Shown here one piece after another: positions 6,484 to 51,835 of a DNA stretch of 64,000 nt. This DNA comes from Escherichia phage ECp13. Under the pieces are notes generated by a model, which saw nothing but the letters and a program-made list of their open reading frames with translations, made no database searches and had not been told where the DNA came from. The first letter of the stretch is position 1, and the number at the start of each line of letters is the position of its first letter. Both the position numbers and the translations under genes were made by a program. The DNA lies in sequence record PP274704.1. One strand, written 5' to 3'.

Positions 6484-6950
6484 ATTATGATAGATTTTAT
6501 CCTTGCGATTTTGTGAATGGCCCTGGATGCAGGGTCGTTCTTTTCGTTACGGGGTGTTTGCATAAATGCGAAGGGTGTTATAATAAATCAACATGGAATG
6601 CTAGAAATGGCGTTCCATTCACTGGTGAAACACTAGAACAATTAATTGAATGTTTGAATAATGATTATATAGAAGGATTAACTATAACTGGAGGAGACCC
6701 TCTCTATCCTGATAACCGAGATGCTGTTCATTGCATTGTTCAAACAGTAAAAAATCTTTATCCAAATAAAAGCATTTGGTTGTGGACAGGATATAAGTTT
6801 GAAGATATTAAACAACTAGAAATGCTTAAATATGTTGATGTTATTATTGATGGGAAGTATGAGAAAAATCTTCCGACCAAAAAGCTGTGGCGAGGATCAG
6901 ATAATCAGCGACTTTGGTCAAATACCGATGGGGTGTGGAAACATGATTAA
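6480..6950 (+). CDS. nrdG: anaerobic RNR activating protein NrdG (radical SAM)
   Basis: 156 aa; Cys-rich cluster CDFVNGPGC...CLHKCEGC; ATGA overlap with nrdD. Confidence 0.9.
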   Translation: MNYDRFYPCDFVNGPGCRVVLFVTGCLHKCEGCYNKSTWNARNGVPFTGETLEQLIECLNNDYIEGLTITGGDPLYPDNRDAVHCIVQTVKNLYPNKSIWLWTGYKFEDIKQLEMLKYVDVIIDGKYEKNLPTKKLWRGSDNQRLWSNTDGVWKHD

Positions 6951-21745: not shown

Positions 21746-21775
21746 GTTTACAAGACTGTTCCTCTGTGGTACTAT
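21746..21775 (+). promoter_or_regulatory. T4-type early promoter
   Basis: GTTTAC 21746-51, 18-nt spacer, TACTAT; ~40-bp block nearly identical to 48462-48500. Confidence 0.55.
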
Positions 21776-27215: not shown

Positions 27216-27245
27216 TTTACAAGCTGACAAGACTATGGTATAGTA
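27216..27245 (+). promoter_or_regulatory. T4-type early promoter
   Basis: GTTTAC 27216-21, 18-nt spacer, TGG-TATAGT; 9-bp inverted repeat 27228-36/27245-53 brackets the -10. Confidence 0.5.
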
Positions 27246-27273
27246 GTCTTGTTGGTTAAATGAGGAGATTGTT

Positions 27274-37156: not shown

Positions 37157-37391
37157 ATTAAGTTTGCATCAGTTTAAGTCTCTTATGGCAAATGTTAAAG
37201 CTGTCATTCAAGAAAATTCAGGACCTGATAATGTTACTATTCGCGAAAAAGCTTTAAAGATAGTATACAGTCTTGAAGAGATACAAAAAGATATTGAATC
37301 TATGGCAAAATTTATTGATGAGCCCATTAATAAAGTTTATATCCAAGATTATACTGTAGGTCAAATTCGCGATTTAGCGAGGAAAATTTAA
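37149..37391 (+). CDS. hypothetical protein, 80 aa
   Basis: ATG 37149 after TAAGGCGG; paralogous to previous ORF. Confidence 0.45.
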   Translation: MIELSLHQFKSLMANVKAVIQENSGPDNVTIREKALKIVYSLEEIQKDIESMAKFIDEPINKVYIQDYTVGQIRDLARKI

Positions 37392-38074
37392 TGTTTGATT
37401 TTATTATAGATTTTGAAACAATGGGAAGCGGTGAAAAGGCAGCTGTTATTGATTTGGCTGTTATTGCCTTTGACCCTAATCCAGAAGTAGTTGAAACATT
37501 TGATGAATTAGTTTCACGCGGCATTAAAATCAAGTTTGATTTAAAAAGCCAAAAAGGACATCGTCTTTTTACTAAAAGCACTATCGAATGGTGGAAAAAT
37601 CAATCTCCTGAAGCTCGAAAAAATATTGCACCATCAGATGAAGATGTAAGCACTATCGATGGTATTGCAAAATTTAATGATTACATCAATGCGCATAATA
37701 TCGATCCTTGGAAATCTCAAGGCTGGTGCCGTGGAATGTCGTTTGATTTTCCAATTTTAGTTGATCTCATTCGTGATATTCAGCGTCTTAACGGCGTTTC
37801 CGAGAATGAGCTTGATACGTTTAAGTTAGAACCTTGTAAATTCTGGAATCAACGCGATATTCGCACCAGAATTGAAGCACTTCTGCTTGTTCGTGATATG
37901 ACCACATGTCCTCTTCCAAAGGGAACTTTAGACGGGTTCGTTGCGCATGATTCTATTCATGACTGTGCGAAAGACATCCTGATGATGAAGTATGCTTTGC
38001 GATATGCTATGGGTCTTGAAGATGCTCCGTCAGAGGAAGAGTGCGATCCTCTATCTCTTCCAACAAAACGATAA
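37391..38074 (+). CDS. dexA: exonuclease A (DnaQ-like 3'-5' exonuclease)
   Basis: 227 aa; DFET exonuclease motif. Confidence 0.85.
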   Translation: MFDFIIDFETMGSGEKAAVIDLAVIAFDPNPEVVETFDELVSRGIKIKFDLKSQKGHRLFTKSTIEWWKNQSPEARKNIAPSDEDVSTIDGIAKFNDYINAHNIDPWKSQGWCRGMSFDFPILVDLIRDIQRLNGVSENELDTFKLEPCKFWNQRDIRTRIEALLLVRDMTTCPLPKGTLDGFVAHDSIHDCAKDILMMKYALRYAMGLEDAPSEEECDPLSLPTKR

Positions 38075-38080
38075 AAAGTT

Positions 38081-38110
38081 GTTTACTTCCTCGGTTAGTT
38101 GTGGTATTAT
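38081..38110 (+). promoter_or_regulatory. T4-type early promoter
   Basis: GTTTAC 38081-86, 18-nt spacer, TGG-TATTAT. Confidence 0.55.
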
Positions 38111-38137
38111 AACACCATAGCTACTGAGGATAATAAA

Positions 38138-38647
38138 ATGAAAATTTATCGTGTTGAATCATCGTTTAGTATTCTTGATTATGAAGATGCTATAACAATA
38201 CGTCGAAATCTTTGTGTTCAAATAACGCCGTACAGGAGTATAATAGATTCATGGAGCGAAGAGTGGCTATTACGTGTAGGTTATAGTAGACCTAATTTTA
38301 TGCATCATAGCGATAATAATAAAAGAATTCCTCTTCCGCGCGAAGACAAATTATTAGTTAAAAATGCTAATATAGCAATTAATACTAAATTTGAGAAAGA
38401 GGAATATGTAGGCGTAGATCACTATATTCCAGGATGGTTTATAGCTCTTTATCATTTTGCTTTCGCTAGTGAATATGATATGATGAGATGGTTCACACGA
38501 GAAGAGCGTGAAGAATTATCTTCTAAAGGATTTTATCTCGCTGTATACGAAGTTCCTGAAGATGAAGTTATCATTGGCGGACACCAAGTAATGTTCCGTA
38601 AATCCCATGCTGAACTTGTAGATTTTATTGAAATGAGACAATTATGA
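38138..38647 (+). CDS. hypothetical protein, 169 aa
   Basis: ATG 38138 after TGAGGATAATAAA. Confidence 0.5.
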   Translation: MKIYRVESSFSILDYEDAITIRRNLCVQITPYRSIIDSWSEEWLLRVGYSRPNFMHHSDNNKRIPLPREDKLLVKNANIAINTKFEKEEYVGVDHYIPGWFIALYHFAFASEYDMMRWFTREEREELSSKGFYLAVYEVPEDEVIIGGHQVMFRKSHAELVDFIEMRQL

Positions 38648-39186
38648 AATTTAATTATAATCCTGAATACACCCCAAATCCTATAGATAAAATATTTGAT
38701 ATGGATACAGCAAGCATGTACGGCACTCTTGTTAAACCATTAGAAATTAAGGAAACCTTTATGACTGCTCGGATCATCGAAATTGGCAAAACCTACAAAC
38801 TGGTTGAAACTGAAATTAAAACTACTGAACTAAGTTTGGGTTATAAAGCATTGACCAGTGTTTTGGGTGAAGGCGAGTTTGTGGTTAAAAGTTTTTCAAA
38901 AAGTAATTGGCATGATAAGAATAAAGCTTACGTGATTCGAGCACAACGCTTAGATAATGATGAAGTAATTAAAACTATAGTCTTTGAAGTAGAGCTTATC
39001 CTCTTCCAAGAATGCGATCCTACTGACCTTCTAACTCGTGCTGTAGCTATCAAGACTCCATTTGTTTCGGTCTATGGTTGGGTAACAGACCAGTGGATTG
39101 AAGATGGTGTTGAACTTCTGAACGTGGTTCATGCAGGCGATTTTAGCGTAGTACCTCGTAGTGCAGTGGTAGCTATTTTGAATTAA
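38644..39186 (+). CDS. hypothetical protein, 180 aa
   Basis: ATGA overlap with previous ORF. Confidence 0.55.
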   Translation: MKFNYNPEYTPNPIDKIFDMDTASMYGTLVKPLEIKETFMTARIIEIGKTYKLVETEIKTTELSLGYKALTSVLGEGEFVVKSFSKSNWHDKNKAYVIRAQRLDNDEVIKTIVFEVELILFQECDPTDLLTRAVAIKTPFVSVYGWVTDQWIEDGVELLNVVHAGDFSVVPRSAVVAILN

Positions 39187-39188
39187 TA

Positions 39189-39218
39189 GTTTACAAACTC
39201 TTGGGACCAGAGTATAAT
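39189..39218 (+). promoter_or_regulatory. T4-type early promoter with inverted repeat across the -10
   Basis: GTTTAC 39189-94, TATAAT 39213-18; GGGACCA 39202-08 and TGGTCCC 39218-24. Confidence 0.5.
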
Positions 39219-39262
39219 GGTCCCGTGGAGTATAAAATCTTTTTAACAAGTGAGAGATAACT

Positions 39263-39760
39263 ATGATTATTAATATTGGTGAAATTGCTCGTGTATCTGA
39301 TAAATCCCGTTCTAAAGCAGCAGGAAAATTGGTTGAAATTGTAAGCATTCAGCTTAAACACGGTGTTAAAGATGAAGATTCTGAAGTAAAAGTGCGTATC
39401 ATTCCTAAAGATGGAAAATCTAAACCTCAGTTTGGCTATGTTCGTGCGAAATTTATTGAGTCTGCGTTTTTGAAAGCTGTTCCTGCTAAAGGAATTGAAA
39501 CGATTGATACTTCGCATGTAGGCGTAGACTTTAAGTGGAAACTCGGTCAAGCTATTAAGTTCGTTGCTCCTTATGAATTCGAATTTACTGAAGATGAGGA
39601 AGGGGTTGTTCAAAAACACCGTACTCGCGCTATGTGTGCATACATTACCGATCAGTGGGTAGAAGATGGCGTTAAGTTGTACAACGCGGTATTTTTAGGA
39701 ACATACAAAGTCATTCCAGAAAGTTGGATTAAACACTATAGCAAAGCCCGCTGTGCATAA
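39263..39760 (+). CDS. motB: MotB-like protein
   Basis: 165 aa; position relative to dexA and 39 as in T4; name from position and length only. Confidence 0.5.
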   Translation: MIINIGEIARVSDKSRSKAAGKLVEIVSIQLKHGVKDEDSEVKVRIIPKDGKSKPQFGYVRAKFIESAFLKAVPAKGIETIDTSHVGVDFKWKLGQAIKFVAPYEFEFTEDEEGVVQKHRTRAMCAYITDQWVEDGVKLYNAVFLGTYKVIPESWIKHYSKARCA

Positions 39761-39790
39761 AGTTTAAAATTTTTTCATAAAACTATATAC

Positions 39791-39833
39791 ATCAGTAGTT
39801 GATTATGGTACTATATCAATATCAACTACTGAT
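39791..39833 (+). promoter_or_regulatory. 13-bp perfect inverted repeat enclosing a -10-like TACTAT
   Basis: ATCAGTAGTTGAT 39791-803 and ATCAACTACTGAT 39821-833, 17-nt spacer; leader shared with motA promoter region. Confidence 0.45.
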
Positions 39834-39857
39834 ACAGAAAACAACTTGGAGAATAAA

Positions 39858-40127
39858 ATGGAAAACTTAATTATCATCGAACAATCTTTCAACGATTATG
39901 GTATGGCTTACGGTTATCGTGCGATAATGGAAGATTCTCGTGGATGTGTTATCGATATTGCTGAATGTAAAGATTTACTGCAGCTTTTGAAGATTGTTCG
40001 TAAAAATTGGGATTGTGAAAACATTAAAGTTCGTGTTGTAACGGAAGAAGAAACTGTTTTTCATGATGTAAAATTCGCCAAAGGTGCTGCCACTCTTCTG
40101 AAACGCATCGCTCCAATGTTCAATTAA
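39858..40127 (+). CDS. hypothetical protein, 89 aa
   Basis: ATG 39858 after GGAGAATAAA. Confidence 0.5.
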   Translation: MENLIIIEQSFNDYGMAYGYRAIMEDSRGCVIDIAECKDLLQLLKIVRKNWDCENIKVRVVTEEETVFHDVKFAKGAATLLKRIAPMFN

Positions 40128-40140
40128 TGAGGAAATTGTA

Positions 40141-40356
40141 ATGAAACGTAAAAATGTTCAGAATTGCACTAATGACGAATTTGAAGATGTATTATTCGAT
40201 CCAGATTTGGTAGTAGTTCAAAAGGAACACACCGTTAAGTTTACTCACTTGACTTCGGTTTATGTGTATGAAAAGGTTGGTGATAAACAACCCATTTACG
40301 GTGTATTCCGTGAAATTACTGAAAATGGCACAACTTACTGGAAGGAAATTTATTAA
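40141..40356 (+). CDS. hypothetical protein, 71 aa
   Basis: ORF after GAGGAAATTGTA. Confidence 0.5.
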
Positions 40357-40775
40357 TGGCTATTAGATTTGAAGTTAATAAATGGTATCAATTTAAAAAT
40401 AAACAAGCTCAAGAAAATTTTATTAAAGACCATACTGATAACGGAATCTATGCACGCCGTTTAGGTATGCATCCTTTTAAAATTTTAGATGTTGACCATC
40501 TTGGTCGTCCTACTAAAATTGTGACATCTACTGGCACAGTTGGATATGCAAAACATGGTGATATCCTTGATGAAAACTTTATCTGGCTCTCTACCAACGA
40601 AGCTGGGTTCTTTGATGAAGTGGAAAATCCATATCAGGCAGCTGAAGAGCAAGAGCAGGAAGAGCAAGAACAAATAGAAGATTTCACAGAATTTCCTATC
40701 ATGAAAGTTACTATTGAAAATAATGAACAGGCATGGTCCTTGTATCAGATGTTGAAAGCACACTTTAAGGAATAA
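40356..40775 (+). CDS. hypothetical protein with acidic Glu/Gln repeat, 139 aa
   Basis: ATGA-type overlap; [16 protein letters not shown] tract. Confidence 0.5.
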
Positions 40776-41617: not shown

Positions 41618-41662
41618 TGATTACCGGAGTATAATATTCCCGAAACCAAACGAGGATAAGTG

Positions 41663-43480
41663 ATGATTAAGAATGAAATTAAAATTCTGAGCGATATTGA
41701 ACATATCAAAAAGCGTAGCGGCATGTACATTGGCTCTTCCGCTAATGAAATGCATGAGCGCTTTCTGTTTGGTAAATGGGAAAGTGTTCAGTATGTACCT
41801 GGTCTTGTTAAGCTTATTGATGAAATTATCGATAACTCAGTAGATGAAGGTATTCGTACTAAGTTTAAATTCGCGAATAAAATTAATGTTACTATCAAAA
41901 ACAATCAAGTAACAGTTGAAGATAACGGTCGTGGTATTCCACAAGCGATGGTTAAAACACCTACTGGTGAAGAAATTCCCGGTCCTGTTGCCGCCTGGAC
42001 TATTCCAAAAGCAGGTGGTAACTTCGGTGATGATAAAGAACGTGTCACTGGCGGTATGAACGGTGTTGGTTCTAGTTTAACTAACATTTTTTCTGTGATG
42101 TTTGTCGGTGAAACTGGCGACGGTCAAAATAATATTGTAGTTCGTTGTTCAAATGGCATGGAAAATAAATCATGGGAAGATATTCCCGGAAAATGGAAAG
42201 GAACTCGTGTTACTTTCATTCCTGATTTTATGTCATTTGAAACTAATGAGCTGTCTCAAGTTTATCTTGACATTACACTGGATCGTCTCCAGACACTTGC
42301 AGTAGTTTATCCTGATATTCAATTTACCTTTAATGGTAAAAAGGTTCAGGGTAATTTTAAGAAATATGCACGCCAATATGATGAGCATGCTATTGTTCAA
42401 GAACAAGAAAATTGTTCTATTGCGGTTGGTCGTTCACCAGATGGTTTTCGTCAATTAACATACGTCAATAACATTCATACTAAGAATGGTGGCCATCACA
42501 TTGACTGCGTTATGGATGATATTTGTGAAGACCTTATTCCACAAATCAAACGTAAGTTCAAAATTGATGTAACTAAAGCACGTGTTAAAGAATGTTTGAC
42601 TATCGTTATGTTTGTTCGTGATATGAAAAACATGCGATTTGATTCTCAGACTAAAGAGCGTTTGACTTCTCCATTTGGTGAAATTCGTAGTCATATTCAG
42701 CTTGATGCTAAAAAGATTTCACGTGCTATTTTAAATAATGAAGCAATTTTAATGCCAATTATTGAAGCTGCCTTGGCTCGTAAATTGGCAGCAGAAAAAG
42801 CAGCAGAAACTAAAGCAGCTAAAAAGGCTTCTAAAGCTAAGGTTCATAAACATATTAAAGCGAATCTTTGTGGTAAAGACGCTGACACTACTCTTTTCTT
42901 GACTGAGGGTGATTCTGCTATCGGATATCTTATTGATGTTCGTGATAAAGAACTTCATGGTGGTTATCCATTGCGTGGTAAAGTTCTCAACAGTTGGGGT
43001 ATGTCATATGCTGATATGCTTAAAAACAAAGAACTGTTTGATATTTGTGCAATTACTGGATTAGTTCTTGGTGAAAAAGCTGAAAACTTGAATTATCATA
43101 ATATTGCTATTATGACCGATGCTGACCATGATGGTCTAGGAAGCATTTATCCTTCTCTGCTCGGATTTTTTAGTAATTGGCCAGAACTGTTTGAACAAGG
43201 AAGAATTCGCTTCGTCAAAACTCCTGTAATCATCGCTCAGGTCGGTAAAAAACAAGAATGGTTTTATACAGTCGCTGAATATGAGAGTGCCAAAGATGCT
43301 CTACCTAAACATAGCATCCGTTATATTAAGGGACTTGGCTCTTTGGAAAAATCTGAATATCGTGAGATGATTCAAAACCCAGTATATGATGTTGTTAAAC
43401 TTCCTGAGAACTGGAAAGAGCTTTTTGAAATGCTCATGGGAGATAATGCTGACCTTCGTAAAGAATGGATGAGCCAATAG
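41663..43480 (+). CDS. 39: DNA topoisomerase II large subunit gp39 (GyrB-like), single ORF covering T4 genes 39+60
   Basis: 605 aa from ATG 41663 (SD GAGGATAAG); GHKL ATPase and TOPRIM motifs; no interruption. Confidence 0.9.
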   Translation: MIKNEIKILSDIEHIKKRSGMYIGSSANEMHERFLFGKWESVQYVPGLVKLIDEIIDNSVDEGIRTKFKFANKINVTIKNNQVTVEDNGRGIPQAMVKTPTGEEIPGPVAAWTIPKAGGNFGDDKERVTGGMNGVGSSLTNIFSVMFVGETGDGQNNIVVRCSNGMENKSWEDIPGKWKGTRVTFIPDFMSFETNELSQVYLDITLDRLQTLAVVYPDIQFTFNGKKVQGNFKKYARQYDEHAIVQEQENCSIAVGRSPDGFRQLTYVNNIHTKNGGHHIDCVMDDICEDLIPQIKRKFKIDVTKARVKECLTIVMFVRDMKNMRFDSQTKERLTSPFGEIRSHIQLDAKKISRAILNNEAILMPIIEAALARKLAAEKAAETKAAKKASKAKVHKHIKANLCGKDADTTLFLTEGDSAIGYLIDVRDKELHGGYPLRGKVLNSWGMSYADMLKNKELFDICAITGLVLGEKAENLNYHNIAIMTDADHDGLGSIYPSLLGFFSNWPELFEQGRIRFVKTPVIIAQVGKKQEWFYTVAEYESAKDALPKHSIRYIKGLGSLEKSEYREMIQNPVYDVVKLPENWKELFEMLMGDNADLRKEWMSQ

Positions 43481-47973: not shown

Positions 47974-48003
47974 GTTTACATACCACAAGGACTGTGGTAC
48001 TAT
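47974..48003 (+). promoter_or_regulatory. T4-type early promoter
   Basis: GTTTAC 47974-79, 18-nt spacer, TGG-TACTAT. Confidence 0.55.
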
Positions 48004-48037
48004 ACAACTATCAACTGATACGGATTTGGAGAATAAA

Positions 48038-48244
48038 ATGTTTACTACAGCTGAATTAAAACGAGCAAAAGCTAAGAAAGGGCAAGGAAAATATAAAGCT
48101 GAATTAGTTAAAGAACTTCAGTTTGCTGAGGCTGAATTGAATTCAATGATTATTCAAAATGCTCCAGAAACTGAAATTGCTCTTAAACGTATTGCGAATA
48201 AGTGTCTTCGTGATGCAATCGTCGATCTTTTAGCAGATTATTGA
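48038..48244 (+). CDS. hypothetical protein, 68 aa
   Basis: ATG 48038 after GGAGAATAAA. Confidence 0.5.
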   Translation: MFTTAELKRAKAKKGQGKYKAELVKELQFAEAELNSMIIQNAPETEIALKRIANKCLRDAIVDLLADY

Positions 48245-48461: not shown

Positions 48462-48491
48462 GTTTACAAGACTGTTCCTCTGTGGTATTAT
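48462..48491 (+). promoter_or_regulatory. T4-type early promoter
   Basis: GTTTAC 48462-67, 18-nt spacer, TGG-TATTAT. Confidence 0.55.
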
Positions 48492-48519
48492 TACCCTATC
48501 AACTACGGAGGAACAGAAA

Positions 48520-51562: not shown

Positions 51563-51713
51563 GTCCATTCATAGGTATTACAAGCGCTGCATTAGTATCT
51601 GGTAGCATTTTACTGGCGGGTTTAGGTGTTGTTCCTGCCGTAGCAGGAGGTCTTCTTGCGTTCGGAATTCAACGTGTTATCATGACAGTTATCACAGTCA
51701 TGCAGTAATTTTA

Positions 51714-51740
51714 GGGAGAGCCAAGGCTCTCCCTTTTTTA
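51714..51740 (+). terminator. rho-independent terminator
   Basis: GGGAGAGCC-AA-GGCUCUCCC followed by TTTTTT. Confidence 0.8.
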
Positions 51741-51764
51741 TTTCAAAAATTTTTTCACAAAACG

Positions 51765-51794: not shown

Positions 51795-51835
51795 ACAACT
51801 ATCAACTACTGATACAGAATTACGGAGATTAGAAA

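Follow-up and report, generated by a model that had tools for sequence, protein, structure and literature searches.

Why should the -10 box of an early promoter lie inside a perfect inverted repeat? The question is raised by positions 39791-39833 of the stretch of DNA analysed here, a 64-kb window from a T4-like phage (Tequatrovirus). The repeat belongs to an early-promoter cassette, with motB on one side and, on the other, a small ORF that precedes cef (Table 1). A first-pass annotation had described a perfect 13-bp repeat with a 17-nt spacer containing TACTAT, and had suggested either an operator-like DNA site or, on read-through from upstream, an RNA hairpin. Sequence reading and a script agree with this description: ATCAGTAGTTGAT is the exact reverse complement of ATCAACTACTGAT, 17 nt separate the two arms, and TACTAT lies between them at 39809-39814. 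We consider it probable that the repeat is the stem-loop part of a T4-like composite early-promoter/stem-loop (PeSL) cassette and that the hairpin acts on read-through RNA.

The cassette is compact. The motB stop codon TAA (39758-39760) is followed by the UP-like element AAGTTTAAAATTTTTTCATAAAAC, which is common to the early-promoter cassette family and whose T-run differs in length among relatives. The -35 region, degenerate according to the first-pass annotation, is more aptly seen as a conserved variant: TATACA recurs at the orthologous site in JS98 and Eco005 and lines up with GTTTACA, which the depositors annotated as the -35 of the T4 msp1 promoter. TATACA matches TTGACA at four of six positions and the published PST/T4 PeSL consensus TTTACW at five of six. 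The extended -10 differs from the family consensus GTGG by one base, and the substitution A39805G in PEC04 and SG1 leads to that consensus. Judged from the position of the -10 box, transcription probably starts at about 39821, the first A of AUCAACUAC. At the 3' end, GGAG (39848-39851) and the ATG at 39858 provide a Shine-Dalgarno (SD) sequence and a start codon. A generic sigma-70 scan omits this promoter because its score of 8/12 is below the cut-off, and the T4 reference record carries no annotated promoter features. A search of the literature, with Miller 2003 outside its scope, turned up no data on transcription starts, 3' ends or RegB cleavage at this site, and nothing usable on T4 start sites, Term-seq or a promoter name such as Pe6.6. 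The paralogous cassette of T4 msp1 is near-identical, has a different spacer and forms no hairpin.

Table 1 Features of the cassette between motB and cef and of related promoter hairpins in the window (fold energies in kcal/mol)
Feature	Position	Strand	Basis or remark
dexA-motB.2 promoter hairpin	38088..38130	+	Encloses -10; 3' arm includes motB.2 SD GAGGA
motB-promoter hairpin	39197..39231	+	Encloses -10 (TTTACA N17 TATAAT); RNA fold -19.7
motB, 165 aa	39263..39760	+	ORF list; megablast/tblastn matches annotated MotB or modifier of transcription
UP-like A/T-rich element	39761..39784	+	Alignment of window cassettes and T4 msp1 cassette
-35 hexamer TATACA	39786..39791	+	17 nt upstream of TACTAT; predicted promoter
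Left arm ATCAGTAGTTGAT	39791..39803	+	Occupies the spacer of the promoter (about -30 to -18); present in this cassette only
Extended -10 (ATGG) and -10 TACTAT	39805..39814	+	Hairpin apex; aligns with annotated T4 msp1 -10
Inner 5-bp helix UGGUA/UAUCA	39806..39818	+	Fold; one G·U, 3-nt loop; unconserved
Right arm ATCAACTACTGAT	39821..39833	+	Predicted +1 to +13 of own transcript
GGAGAATAAAA, SD of downstream ORF and exact RegB/S1 optimum	39848..39858	+	14 nt 3' of hairpin base
89-aa ORF (MENLIIIEQSF...)	39858..40127	+	Annotated hypothetical protein in relatives
cef	40141-40356		Downstream of 89-aa ORF
goF	40356-40775		After cef
Hairpin of cassette 27216	27222..27257	+	15 bp, 4 G·U; encloses -10 TATAGT; -18.9
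Hairpin of cassette 48463	48472..48516	+	15 bp, 2 G·U; encloses -10; -23.2

The window contains no longer perfect inverted repeat (loops of 3-40 nt), and this one extends imperfectly to 20-nt arms around a 3-nt loop. Folded as RNA it forms a 13-bp outer helix with 5 G-C among its 13 pairs, a 2x2 internal loop and a 5-bp inner helix, and spans promoter positions -30 to +12. RNA folding, which the first-pass annotation had proposed as a check, gives a stable hairpin of -20.2 kcal/mol compared with -6.9 ± 2.2 for shuffled sequences (z = -6.1; 0 of 200 shuffles as good). The pairing is specific to the cognate spacer and leader, whose duplex has -18.2 kcal/mol (P = 0.001 against 3000 random positions). 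Taken alone, a 13-bp repeat is only moderately improbable: perfect repeats with arms of at least 13 bp occur in 6.3% of random 64-kb sequences (Markov-1), or about 0.06 expected per window. Its position, extension and context together make chance untenable. An Rfam covariance-model search of 38900-40400 gave no match with E ≤ 1.

The predicted start coincides with the first base of the right arm, so both arms would be present only in RNA that comes from motB. Transcripts reading through from motB would hold the complete repeat, and a terminator scan found no terminator-like site on the way from the motB promoter to the repeat. Other early promoters share the right arm as a leader, and an identical copy stands at 51801-51813. 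In the four sister hairpins tested, which contain one to four G·U pairs each, the sense RNA is 2.2 to 8.5 kcal/mol more stable than the antisense RNA; it is these G·U pairs that favour the sense strand. An RNA or terminator on the antisense strand was rejected, as the antisense folds are weaker and the T-run there begins 8 nt after the stem.

Hairpins of this kind are a recurrent property of early promoters in the window. Twelve early-promoter cassettes were found by pattern and one more at 38082, giving 13, and alignment shows that they have in common the UP element, the -35, GTGG-TAyTAT and the leader ATCAACTAC; by BLAST the cassette occurs at 2-6 places per genome. Five of the 13 carry a hairpin around the -10 box, with different arms in each, and the spacer-leader duplex reaches P ≤ 0.04 in four of 12 cassettes (3000 random positions). 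A scan of the + strand yielded 53 hairpin clusters of -16 kcal/mol or below, five of which enclose a promoter -10, where about 0.4 would be expected. The hairpin is not an obligatory part of such a promoter, for seven or eight of the 13 cassettes lack a strong stem-loop. Two of the sister repeats had already been noticed in the first-pass annotation and are real, although its coordinates were off by one at the start: our script places GGGACCA and TGGTCCC at 39203-39209 and 39218-39224 in the motB promoter, and ACAAGACTA and TAGTCTTGT at 27227-27235 and 27244-27252 in cassette 27216. In the motB promoter the extended 3' arm overlaps the RegB site of the motB leader (39227-39237). The hairpin at 38088-38130 has -23.7 kcal/mol in the scan, and the 86-nt fold of the whole gap, with a second small upstream helix, reaches -27.1 (z = -5.8); at this site the annotators of SA20RB marked an overlapping promoter and terminator. 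Cassettes 21747 and 48463 have a common spacer and different leaders, a mosaicism indicating that sequence is often exchanged among cassettes. This shared spacer and a loop conversion in ECO07P2, in which the inner helix of the 39791-39833 hairpin is changed by conversion of the discriminator to the family consensus ACAACT, are indirect signs of the modular shuffling that, along with mini-circles, would result from recombination between PeSL cassettes. A paper on toxIN evolution places recombination at homologies of 2-10 bp and does not implicate promoter cassettes.

In relatives, the arms of the 39791-39833 hairpin are exact in 474 of 497 records. Flanks and loop vary while the arms are invariant in every orthologue sampled; an alignment of ten orthologues has 13 variable columns, none of them among the 26 of the arms (P = 0.018). 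The same element is found unchanged in T4 (49-nt element at 6566-6614, minus strand, MT984581) and in PST. The first-pass annotation had made its reading depend on arms that are conserved or co-vary in relatives. Conserved they are, and covariation of their own they do not show; the invariance is weak evidence because the sampled phages are more than 95% identical and recent common descent would give the same picture. Two scans of IMG/VR found too few loci for covariation: three with an exact 21-mer downstream anchor, of which two were unrelated, and five close relatives with a locus search built on MotB. The GenBank phage collection was used instead.

The hairpin upstream of motB is more informative. 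In a formal test it shows covariation across Tequatrovirus, Gaprivervirus and Dhakavirus: 100% of cells are paired, four of seven pairs are changed on both sides, and the observed score is reached by none of 500 shuffles, with slid registers attaining at most 49% pairing. In JY01 a deletion of 1 nt in the loop shifts the register, for which reason this phage was excluded; perfect pairing of its arms, GAGAGCC/GGCTCTC, is retained. At the site orthologous to 39791-39833, JS98 and Eco005, which belong to other genera, have the same UP element, -35 and leader (the -10 is kept in JS98) and a hairpin around the -10 whose arms are unrelated to those studied here. Gapriverviruses have kept a stem-loop at this site and lost the -10. 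The JS98 and Gaprivervirus stems, being in another register, do not allow a pair-by-pair alignment with the 39791-39833 stem. Mosigvirus cassettes display the same architecture, a 13-bp outer helix plus an inner helix, in C·A, perfect and U·G variants. The RNA-hairpin reading of the first-pass annotation is thus favoured by the start position, the G·U bias and covariation in a sister hairpin, with the reservation that the 39791-39833 stem itself does not covary; what that annotation lacked was recognition of the right arm as a common leader and of the published PeSL class.

Gene content around the cassette is variable. The upstream gene is replaced in JY01, RB27 and GiZh, and the 89-aa ORF is internally deleted in T4, SA20RB and D5505 (in T4 a 208-nt out-of-frame deletion disrupts it) and wholly absent in ES26. 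The junctions map to the stop codon upstream, to the interior of the ORF or to the SD, and none lies in the arms.

This combination of features has been described before. PeSLs are promoter-early stem-loop cassettes of T4-type phages (Arbiol et al. 2010, PMC2839356; Comeau et al. 2014, PMC4122927), a class described in PST/T4. As in published PeSLs, the 39791-39833 cassette is intergenic and begins at an upstream stop codon in an A/T-rich stretch, and it carries a sigma-70-like early promoter with 17-nt spacing. At the level of sequence, the PST/T4 promoter consensus TTTACW-N17-TAYWAT is matched by TACTAT at six of six positions, besides the five of six of TATACA. A stable stem-loop lies between -35 and -10 or overlaps the -10, as it does here, and is followed by an SD and a start codon. 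PeSLs occur in many copies in hyperplastic regions, adjoining small ORFs of unknown function and indels or replacements; the window likewise has many related copies among small non-essential early genes, and ours is associated with indels and replacements among close relatives, with breakpoints outside the stem. The repeat is therefore a good example of the known PeSL design and not a new one, and no new category is opened, because the class is published and the sequence is identical in T4 and PST. Some differences exist. In the portions of the PeSL papers available to us, the stem-loops of PST are placed "just upstream" of the promoter and follow an AGNA-loop-TCNT pattern, unlike the present stem of 13 perfect pairs, which straddles the -10 as in the RB49/phi1 subclass. 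The same portions do not discuss the G·U sense bias, compensatory evolution or the absence of the 5' arm from the promoter's own RNA.

Promoters embedded in hairpins are also known from the late genes of T4. For e, soc, 49 and I-TevI, the promoter lies within DNA encoding the 5' strand of an RNA helix, and long transcripts started upstream fold whereas those from the internal promoter do not, which provides translational control (PMC3014915). Cassettes 48463 and 38082 and those of JS98 and the Mosigviruses follow this logic, with an SD in the 3' arm. In cassette 48463, where the arm contains GGAGG, the SD has a predicted accessibility of 0.89 when the promoter itself starts the transcript and of 0.00 in read-through RNA, and the mean unpaired probability of the translation-initiation region falls from 0.91 to 0.29. 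The 39791-39833 promoter is of the early sigma-70 type, unlike the late (gp55) promoters whose hairpins sequester an SD or AUG, and its SD lies 14 nt outside the helix. The predicted mean unpaired probability of its translation-initiation region is nearly equal in the two RNAs (0.60 in its own transcript, 0.64 in read-through), so masking of the ribosome site, which fits 48463 and 38082, was rejected for this copy.

A second known system is RNA processing by RegB. The RegB/S1 site is a single-stranded 11-nt motif, GGAGRAYARAA, with the optimum GGAGAAUAAAA (PMC1702504). The exact optimum lies at 39848-39858 and is predicted to be largely unpaired in both RNA forms, making it a candidate site. 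Its place 14 nt 3' of a stable hairpin resembles RegB processing with 3' protective stem-loops: cleavage would leave the hairpin near the new 3' end of the motB mRNA. Unlike in those RegB systems, the link between hairpin and cleavage at 39791-39833 is one that we infer.

How might the cassette work? The arrangement, read as motB stop, UP element, TATACA, a 17-nt spacer, ATGG-TACTAT, leader, SD/RegB site GGAGAAUAAAA and ATG, with a spacer exactly complementary to the first 13 bases predicted to be transcribed, points to an active promoter and to two kinds of RNA. Host sigma-70 RNA polymerase would start at about 39821 and make RNA with the 3' arm only, leaving the leader unstructured. RNA from the motB promoter would contain both arms and fold into a hairpin of -20 kcal/mol with the -10 sequence at its tip. 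With both arms in motB-derived RNA only, the hairpin would mark, and act on, read-through transcripts alone. It would have to straddle the -10 because spacer and leader are the only parts of the compact cassette that are unconstrained in sequence. The role that we prefer is that of a transcript-boundary element: a barrier to 3' exonucleases that would define and stabilise the 3' end of motB mRNA after RegB cleavage at the GGAG that lies 14 nt downstream, and/or a site at which read-through polymerase pauses or is attenuated.

Other accounts of the repeat deserve attention. Correction of quasipalindromes is a mechanism that was first described in T4 rII, and the perfect repeat could be a mutational by-product without a function of its own, its spacer having been copied or corrected from the leader by intrastrand template switching and persisting solely through the recent divergence of the sampled relatives. 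Such an origin would explain why the arms are perfect rather than merely complementary and why they are without variation, and hence without compensatory change, across the 497 records; it would also fit the non-complementary spacer of T4 msp1, an annotated promoter, the lack of any hairpin in over half of the cassettes and the frequent sequence exchange seen in the 21747/48463 mosaics. It does not readily explain why five independent cassettes have different hairpins at the same position, about ten times the chance expectation, why a sister hairpin is kept by compensatory and G·U substitutions across three genera, why the Dhakavirus site has a hairpin with unrelated arms, or why substitutions and indels pile up right beside the arms and not within them. 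We regard a by-product as unlikely. A terminator or attenuator of motB transcription, intrinsic or acting through polymerase pausing for Rho, overlaps part of the explanation that we prefer. The stable hairpin does lie just past the motB stop codon, where ribosomes leave, and one annotation pipeline (WebGeSTer, used by the annotators of SA20RB) marked exactly this repeat as a rho-independent terminator. In addition, a PeSL stem-loop of RB49 reduced downstream lacZ about as much as rrnB T1 (Arbiol et al., PMC2839356), but that stem-loop is a different, G/C-rich one and the assay did not separate termination from RNA processing. A canonical intrinsic terminator, with a G+C-rich stem directly followed by a U-run, was rejected: the stem here is A/U-rich, no U-tract follows it (tail ACAGAAAACA / ACAGAAAACAAC; no U-run within 8 nt) and the consensus terminator scan does not report it, in contrast to the canonical terminator with a T6 tail at 51701-51745. 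The missing U-tract also weakens the terminator role published for PeSLs, which is doubtful for this copy, and we hold termination or attenuation to be clearly unlikely as the main explanation.

The repeat might instead act as DNA, either as the operator of a dimeric protein or as a cruciform extruded when the DNA is negatively supercoiled, which would shut off the promoter or draw in endonuclease VII and recombination. Its half-sites bracket the -10, their centres lying 30 bp or about three helical turns apart, so that polymerase would be blocked by a protein bound there or by the cruciform. The core stem of this copy is all Watson-Crick and can pair as DNA (-11.5 kcal/mol), and the cassette lies at module junctions, PeSLs having been proposed as recombination sites. 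Nevertheless, the junctions in relatives never fall in the arms, a 17-nt centre disfavours cruciform extrusion, and half-sites of 13 perfect bases are atypically long for an operator. A common operator was rejected because the arms are unrelated among the five promoter-embedded repeats; at the level of sequence, they show neither a shared half-site nor symmetry maintained as DNA. The sister hairpins need G·U pairs, which are mismatches in DNA, and their natural variants are G·U or compensatory. The T4 reviews consulted know of no sequence-specific repressor of early promoters, and MotB binds DNA non-specifically. With arms unshared, G·U dependence and compensatory substitutions, the operator-like site of the first-pass annotation is unsupported, and we judge any action as DNA very improbable.

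If the boundary role is extended to the family, spacer-leader complementarity could be a general, selected device of Tevenvirinae early promoters for sorting transcripts by origin, a proposal that we make only tentatively. Read-through RNA would fold a hairpin around the -10 of the next promoter, which RNA started there cannot do. An SD in the 3' arm would make read-through RNA translationally silent for the next gene, and a GGAG in the 3' arm would shield it from RegB. At 39791-39833, RegB cleavage a short way downstream would leave read-through RNA with the stem as a protective 3' cap. Expression and decay of each early gene would then be set by its own promoter, insulated from its neighbours, and PeSLs would gain a post-transcriptional insulation function beyond their published roles in termination and recombination.

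Overall, the stems behave as sense-strand RNA structures under compensatory evolution that are placed to form in read-through RNA only, and some mask the ribosome or RegB site of the next gene. These points make the function of PeSL stem-loops directly testable in T4. If the transcript-origin model is true, it would account for the insulation from one another of early genes that are tightly packed and have strong promoters, and would supply compact promoter/insulator parts for phage engineering.

Two 13-nt segments, 39791-39803 and 39821-39833, match each other exactly as reverse complements around a 17-nt centre, as established by reading the sequence and by script, and TACTAT lies inside this centre at 39809-39814. 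The first-pass annotation had described a perfect 13-bp inverted repeat enclosing a -10 element, and this observation is correct and non-random. Complementarity continues inward, imperfectly, down to a 3-nt loop. In the RNA fold an outer helix of 13 bp, Watson-Crick throughout, is separated by a 2x2 internal loop from an inner helix of 5 bp. The energy is -20.2 kcal/mol, and dinucleotide shuffles average -6.9 +/- 2.2 (z = -6.1). At loop lengths of 3-40 nt no other perfect inverted repeat in the window is as long; among random 64-kb sequences from a Markov-1 model, 6.3% contain one with arms of at least 13 bp.

The phage is T4-like (genus Tequatrovirus), with 97.9% identity to vB_EcoM_G10400 across the stretch. 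The repeat sits in a 97-nt gap between motB and an 89-aa ORF, and the sequence of this gap is 100% identical in T4, SA20RB, G10400 and JY01. Gene 39 (41660-43480) encodes an unsplit topoisomerase II large subunit of 606 aa, the T4 counterpart of which is the 39 / mobA remnant / 60 arrangement. A 180-aa ORF upstream of motB (38644-39186) has a C-terminal motif in common with MotB (VYGWVTDQWIEDGVELLNVV... in the ORF, CAYITDQWVEDGVKLYNAV... in MotB) and is distinct from the 119-aa MotB.1 of T4; the number and kind of MotB-like paralogues upstream of motB vary among relatives.

Genes, promoter-enclosing hairpins and terminator in the window
Feature	Position	Strand	Remarks
dexA	37391-38074	+	early region, first in listed order
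motB.2	after dexA	+	early region
MotB.1-like gene	between motB.2 and motB	+	early region
motB	39263-39760	+	early region, upstream of repeat
89-aa ORF	39858-40127	+	between motB and cef, intact in window
cef, goF, 39.2, 39.1, gene 39	after 89-aa ORF, in that order	+	
Hairpin enclosing -10	27222-27257	+	sliding-window scan
Hairpin enclosing -10	38088-38130	+	sliding-window scan; dexA-motB.2 gap
Hairpin enclosing -10	39197-39231	+	sliding-window scan; motB-upstream hairpin
Hairpin enclosing -10	39791-39833	+	sliding-window scan; the repeat
Hairpin enclosing -10	48472-48516	+	sliding-window scan; cassette 48463
Intrinsic terminator	51701-51745		GGGAGAGCC-AAGG-GGCTCTCCC then TTTTTT; replaces embedded stem at cassette 51766

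Searching with a pattern fitted to T4 early promoters gave 12 strong cassettes on the + strand, and a 13th lies at 38082. Aligned on the -10 box, they have in common a UP-like element (aaaattttttcacaaaac), the -35 hexamer TTTACA, a 17-nt spacer with the 3' end ctgtgg, the -10 hexamer TAyTAT, a leader (acaactATCAACTAC...) and the SD ttGGAGaataaaATG. The cassette with the repeat has TATACA as its -35 and ATGG-TACTAT as an extended -10. TATACA and TACTAT align column for column with the depositor-annotated -35 and -10 of the T4 msp1 cassette (GenBank L13089), a sequence with 85% identity across 100 nt that is nearly the same from the -10 to the ATG; its spacer differs and it has no hairpin. The right arm of the repeat is the shared leader, with an exact second copy at 51801-51813 behind another promoter, and the left arm, filling the spacer, is the unique part of the cassette. 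With the usual 7 nt counted from the -10, the predicted start is ~39821, where the right arm begins. RNA from this promoter would thus lack the left arm and, given the inferred start site, only read-through RNA from motB would be able to fold the hairpin. The 17-nt spacer agactgttcctctgtgg is the same in two cassettes named by window position, 21747 (spacer at 21753-21769) and 48463 (48469-48485); their leaders differ, and a hairpin is possible only in 48463. The shared spacer indicates that promoter cassettes undergo mosaic exchange.

The association of hairpins with early promoters is not due to chance. An unbiased sliding-window scan of the + strand yielded 53 hairpin clusters at or below -16 kcal/mol, five of which enclose a promoter -10 compared with about 0.4 expected (arithmetic from the scan numbers). 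Counted from the start site, these stems begin at about -30 and end between +5 and +18. Two of them had been reported earlier as further inverted repeats around promoters; both are present, with starts one base off from those first given. Spacer-leader duplexes are strong only in cognate pairs: that of the repeat reaches -18.2 kcal/mol (P = 0.001 against 3000 positions drawn at random with this geometry), and P is at most 0.04 in 4 of 12 cassettes. Cassette 51766 is the sole one with a canonical terminator (T6 tail) directly upstream of its UP element; beyond it and the five embedded stems, the remaining cassettes contain no strong stem-loop. Small hairpins wholly within the promoter spacer, such as TACCACA-AGGAC-TGTGGTA and AACCA-AGGA-TGGTT, occur at 47981-47999 and in the APCEc01 locus (L026, ~900-930 and ~1455-1475), and make up a second positional subclass of the cassette stem-loop.

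The 49-nt element is found in 497 GenBank phage records, 474 of them with an exact copy. Among the ten most divergent orthologous copies obtainable (104-column cassette, 26 arm columns), all 13 variable columns lie outside the arms (hypergeometric P = 0.018) and belong to the UP T-run, to the loop/discriminator or to the leader past the right arm; the outer arms are thus conserved. A39805G in PEC04 and SG1 falls within the internal loop, and in ECO07P2 conversion of the discriminator to the family consensus abolishes the inner helix. The Tequatrovirus copies compared contain no compensatory change in the outer arms. Arm conservation in relatives, proposed in the first-pass annotation as a check, therefore holds in that the arms are kept, without covariation of their own. 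As these phages are closely related, the invariance is weak evidence, and distant genera are more informative.

In the motB-cef gap of the Dhakaviruses JS98 and Eco005 we found the same UP element, the -35 TATACA and the leader CTATCAAC; the -10 is kept as TACTAT in JS98 and is TAAGAT in Eco005. Around it, both form a 12-bp hairpin with unrelated arms (GGTAGGGTAGTG / TATTACCCTATC) and three G·U pairs. The Gapriverviruses VR25, VR26 and RZ (L022-L024) keep a homologous stem-loop, GATAGGGTA-ATTT-TGCCCTATC, in a gap of ~50 nt from which a recognisable -10 is absent. This looks like half of a promoter-early stem-loop (PeSL) cassette of T4-type phages, the stem surviving without the promoter. Mosigvirus cassettes are likewise built of two helices, the outer one with 13-bp arms, and occur naturally in C·A, perfect and U·G variants. 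The motB-upstream hairpin, a sister element around the -10 of the motB promoter, varies stepwise across sources: its arms are GGGACCA/TGGTCCC in the window and T4, GGGACCA/TGGTCCT in SA20RB, GGGATCA/TGGTCCT in an IMG/VR contig (L020), GGGGCCA/TGGTCCC in VR25, GGGGTCA/TGACCCC in RZ and GAGAGCC/GGCTCT(T/C) in JS98 and Eco005. When these sequences are aligned on the -10 without gaps, 100% of cells are paired and both sides have changed in four of seven pairs; none of 500 shuffles attained the covariation score of the real alignment, and sliding the register gave at most 49% pairing. These results are direct evidence that the class of promoter-embedded stems is selected as a base-paired structure.

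An operator-like DNA site and an RNA hairpin formed on read-through had both been suggested for the repeat. No sequence is common to the five repeats, which makes a shared operator protein implausible, and the operator is not supported. Sense RNA is more stable than antisense RNA in all four hairpins tested, by 8.5, 4.2, 2.2 and 7.7 kcal/mol, owing to 4, 2, 1 and 2 G·U pairs, respectively; at these positions a DNA cruciform, like the opposite strand, would be mismatched. The bias of the repeat itself is small (2.2 kcal/mol) and stems from the inner helix only. The read-through RNA hairpin is the alternative that finds support. The annotators of SA20RB labelled the repeat a rho-independent terminator via WebGeSTer; its tail, ACAGAAAACAAC, contains no U-tract, and our terminator scan did not report the stem. 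Masking of the ribosome site by this hairpin was rejected, the predicted mean unpaired probability of the translation-initiation region being 0.60 in promoter-initiated and 0.64 in read-through RNA. At cassette 48463, predicted SD accessibility falls from 0.89 in the promoter's own RNA to 0.00 in read-through RNA. The SD lies within the 3' arm in this stem and in those of the dexA-motB.2 gap, JS98 and Mosigvirus, and the first two are an early-promoter analogue of T4 lysozyme-type translational masking. The logic of the repeat resembles that of T4 late promoters in inhibitory hairpins (e, soc, 49, I-TevI; PMC3014915), a class from which it is set apart because its SD lies beyond the helix.

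What the stems have in common is most likely a stable structure confined to read-through RNA; it is assembled from spacer and leader, the two stretches that are free of constraint in so compact a cassette. GGAGAAUAAAA, an exact copy of the optimal target of T4 RegB endoribonuclease and ribosomal protein S1 (defined in PMC1702504), is found at 39848-39858, 14 nt past the end of the stem, and at 48028-48038, both times as a cassette SD. After a RegB cut at the former, motB mRNA would end a short way past the hairpin, which would then bar 3' exonucleases; the stem may also pause polymerase just past ribosome release at the motB stop codon. On account of the nearby RegB site and possible pausing we favour a boundary role on read-through RNA, and we infer as its specific biochemical form a 3' cap and/or attenuator. 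In the motB leader, a RegB site that has been studied by experiment, GGAGUAUAAAA (39227-39237), shares bases with the extended 3' arm of the motB-upstream hairpin; in read-through RNA this might protect the site from RegB.

PeSL features described by Arbiol et al. 2010 (PMC2839356) and Comeau et al. 2014 (PMC4122927) include a stop codon within A/T-rich sequence, an early promoter that is strong and sigma-70-like, and an SD with start codon; many copies lie in hyperplastic regions, adjoining indels between close relatives, and the functions proposed there include terminator and mini-circle. The cassette of the repeat shows all sequence-level PeSL features, module junctions included. Its upstream gene is swapped for another MotB-like gene in JY01, RB27 and GiZh. 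In T4 an out-of-frame deletion of 208 nt (window 39862-40069), with AAAA microhomology, inactivates the ORF downstream and leaves an 11-codon remnant (T4 locus L001, ~2148-2222); the 170-bp motB-cef 'intergenic' region of T4 is therefore a gene remnant. ES26 (L009) lacks the 89-aa ORF, an SD-to-SD junction fusing the cassette to cef. Judged by its sequence, the element is a member of the published PeSL class, and we regard this assignment and the RNA-level reading as fairly secure. Since the class is published and the element is identical in T4 and PST, novelty is low; the remaining interest lies in the function of PeSL stems and in the transcript-origin model suggested by the comparative data.
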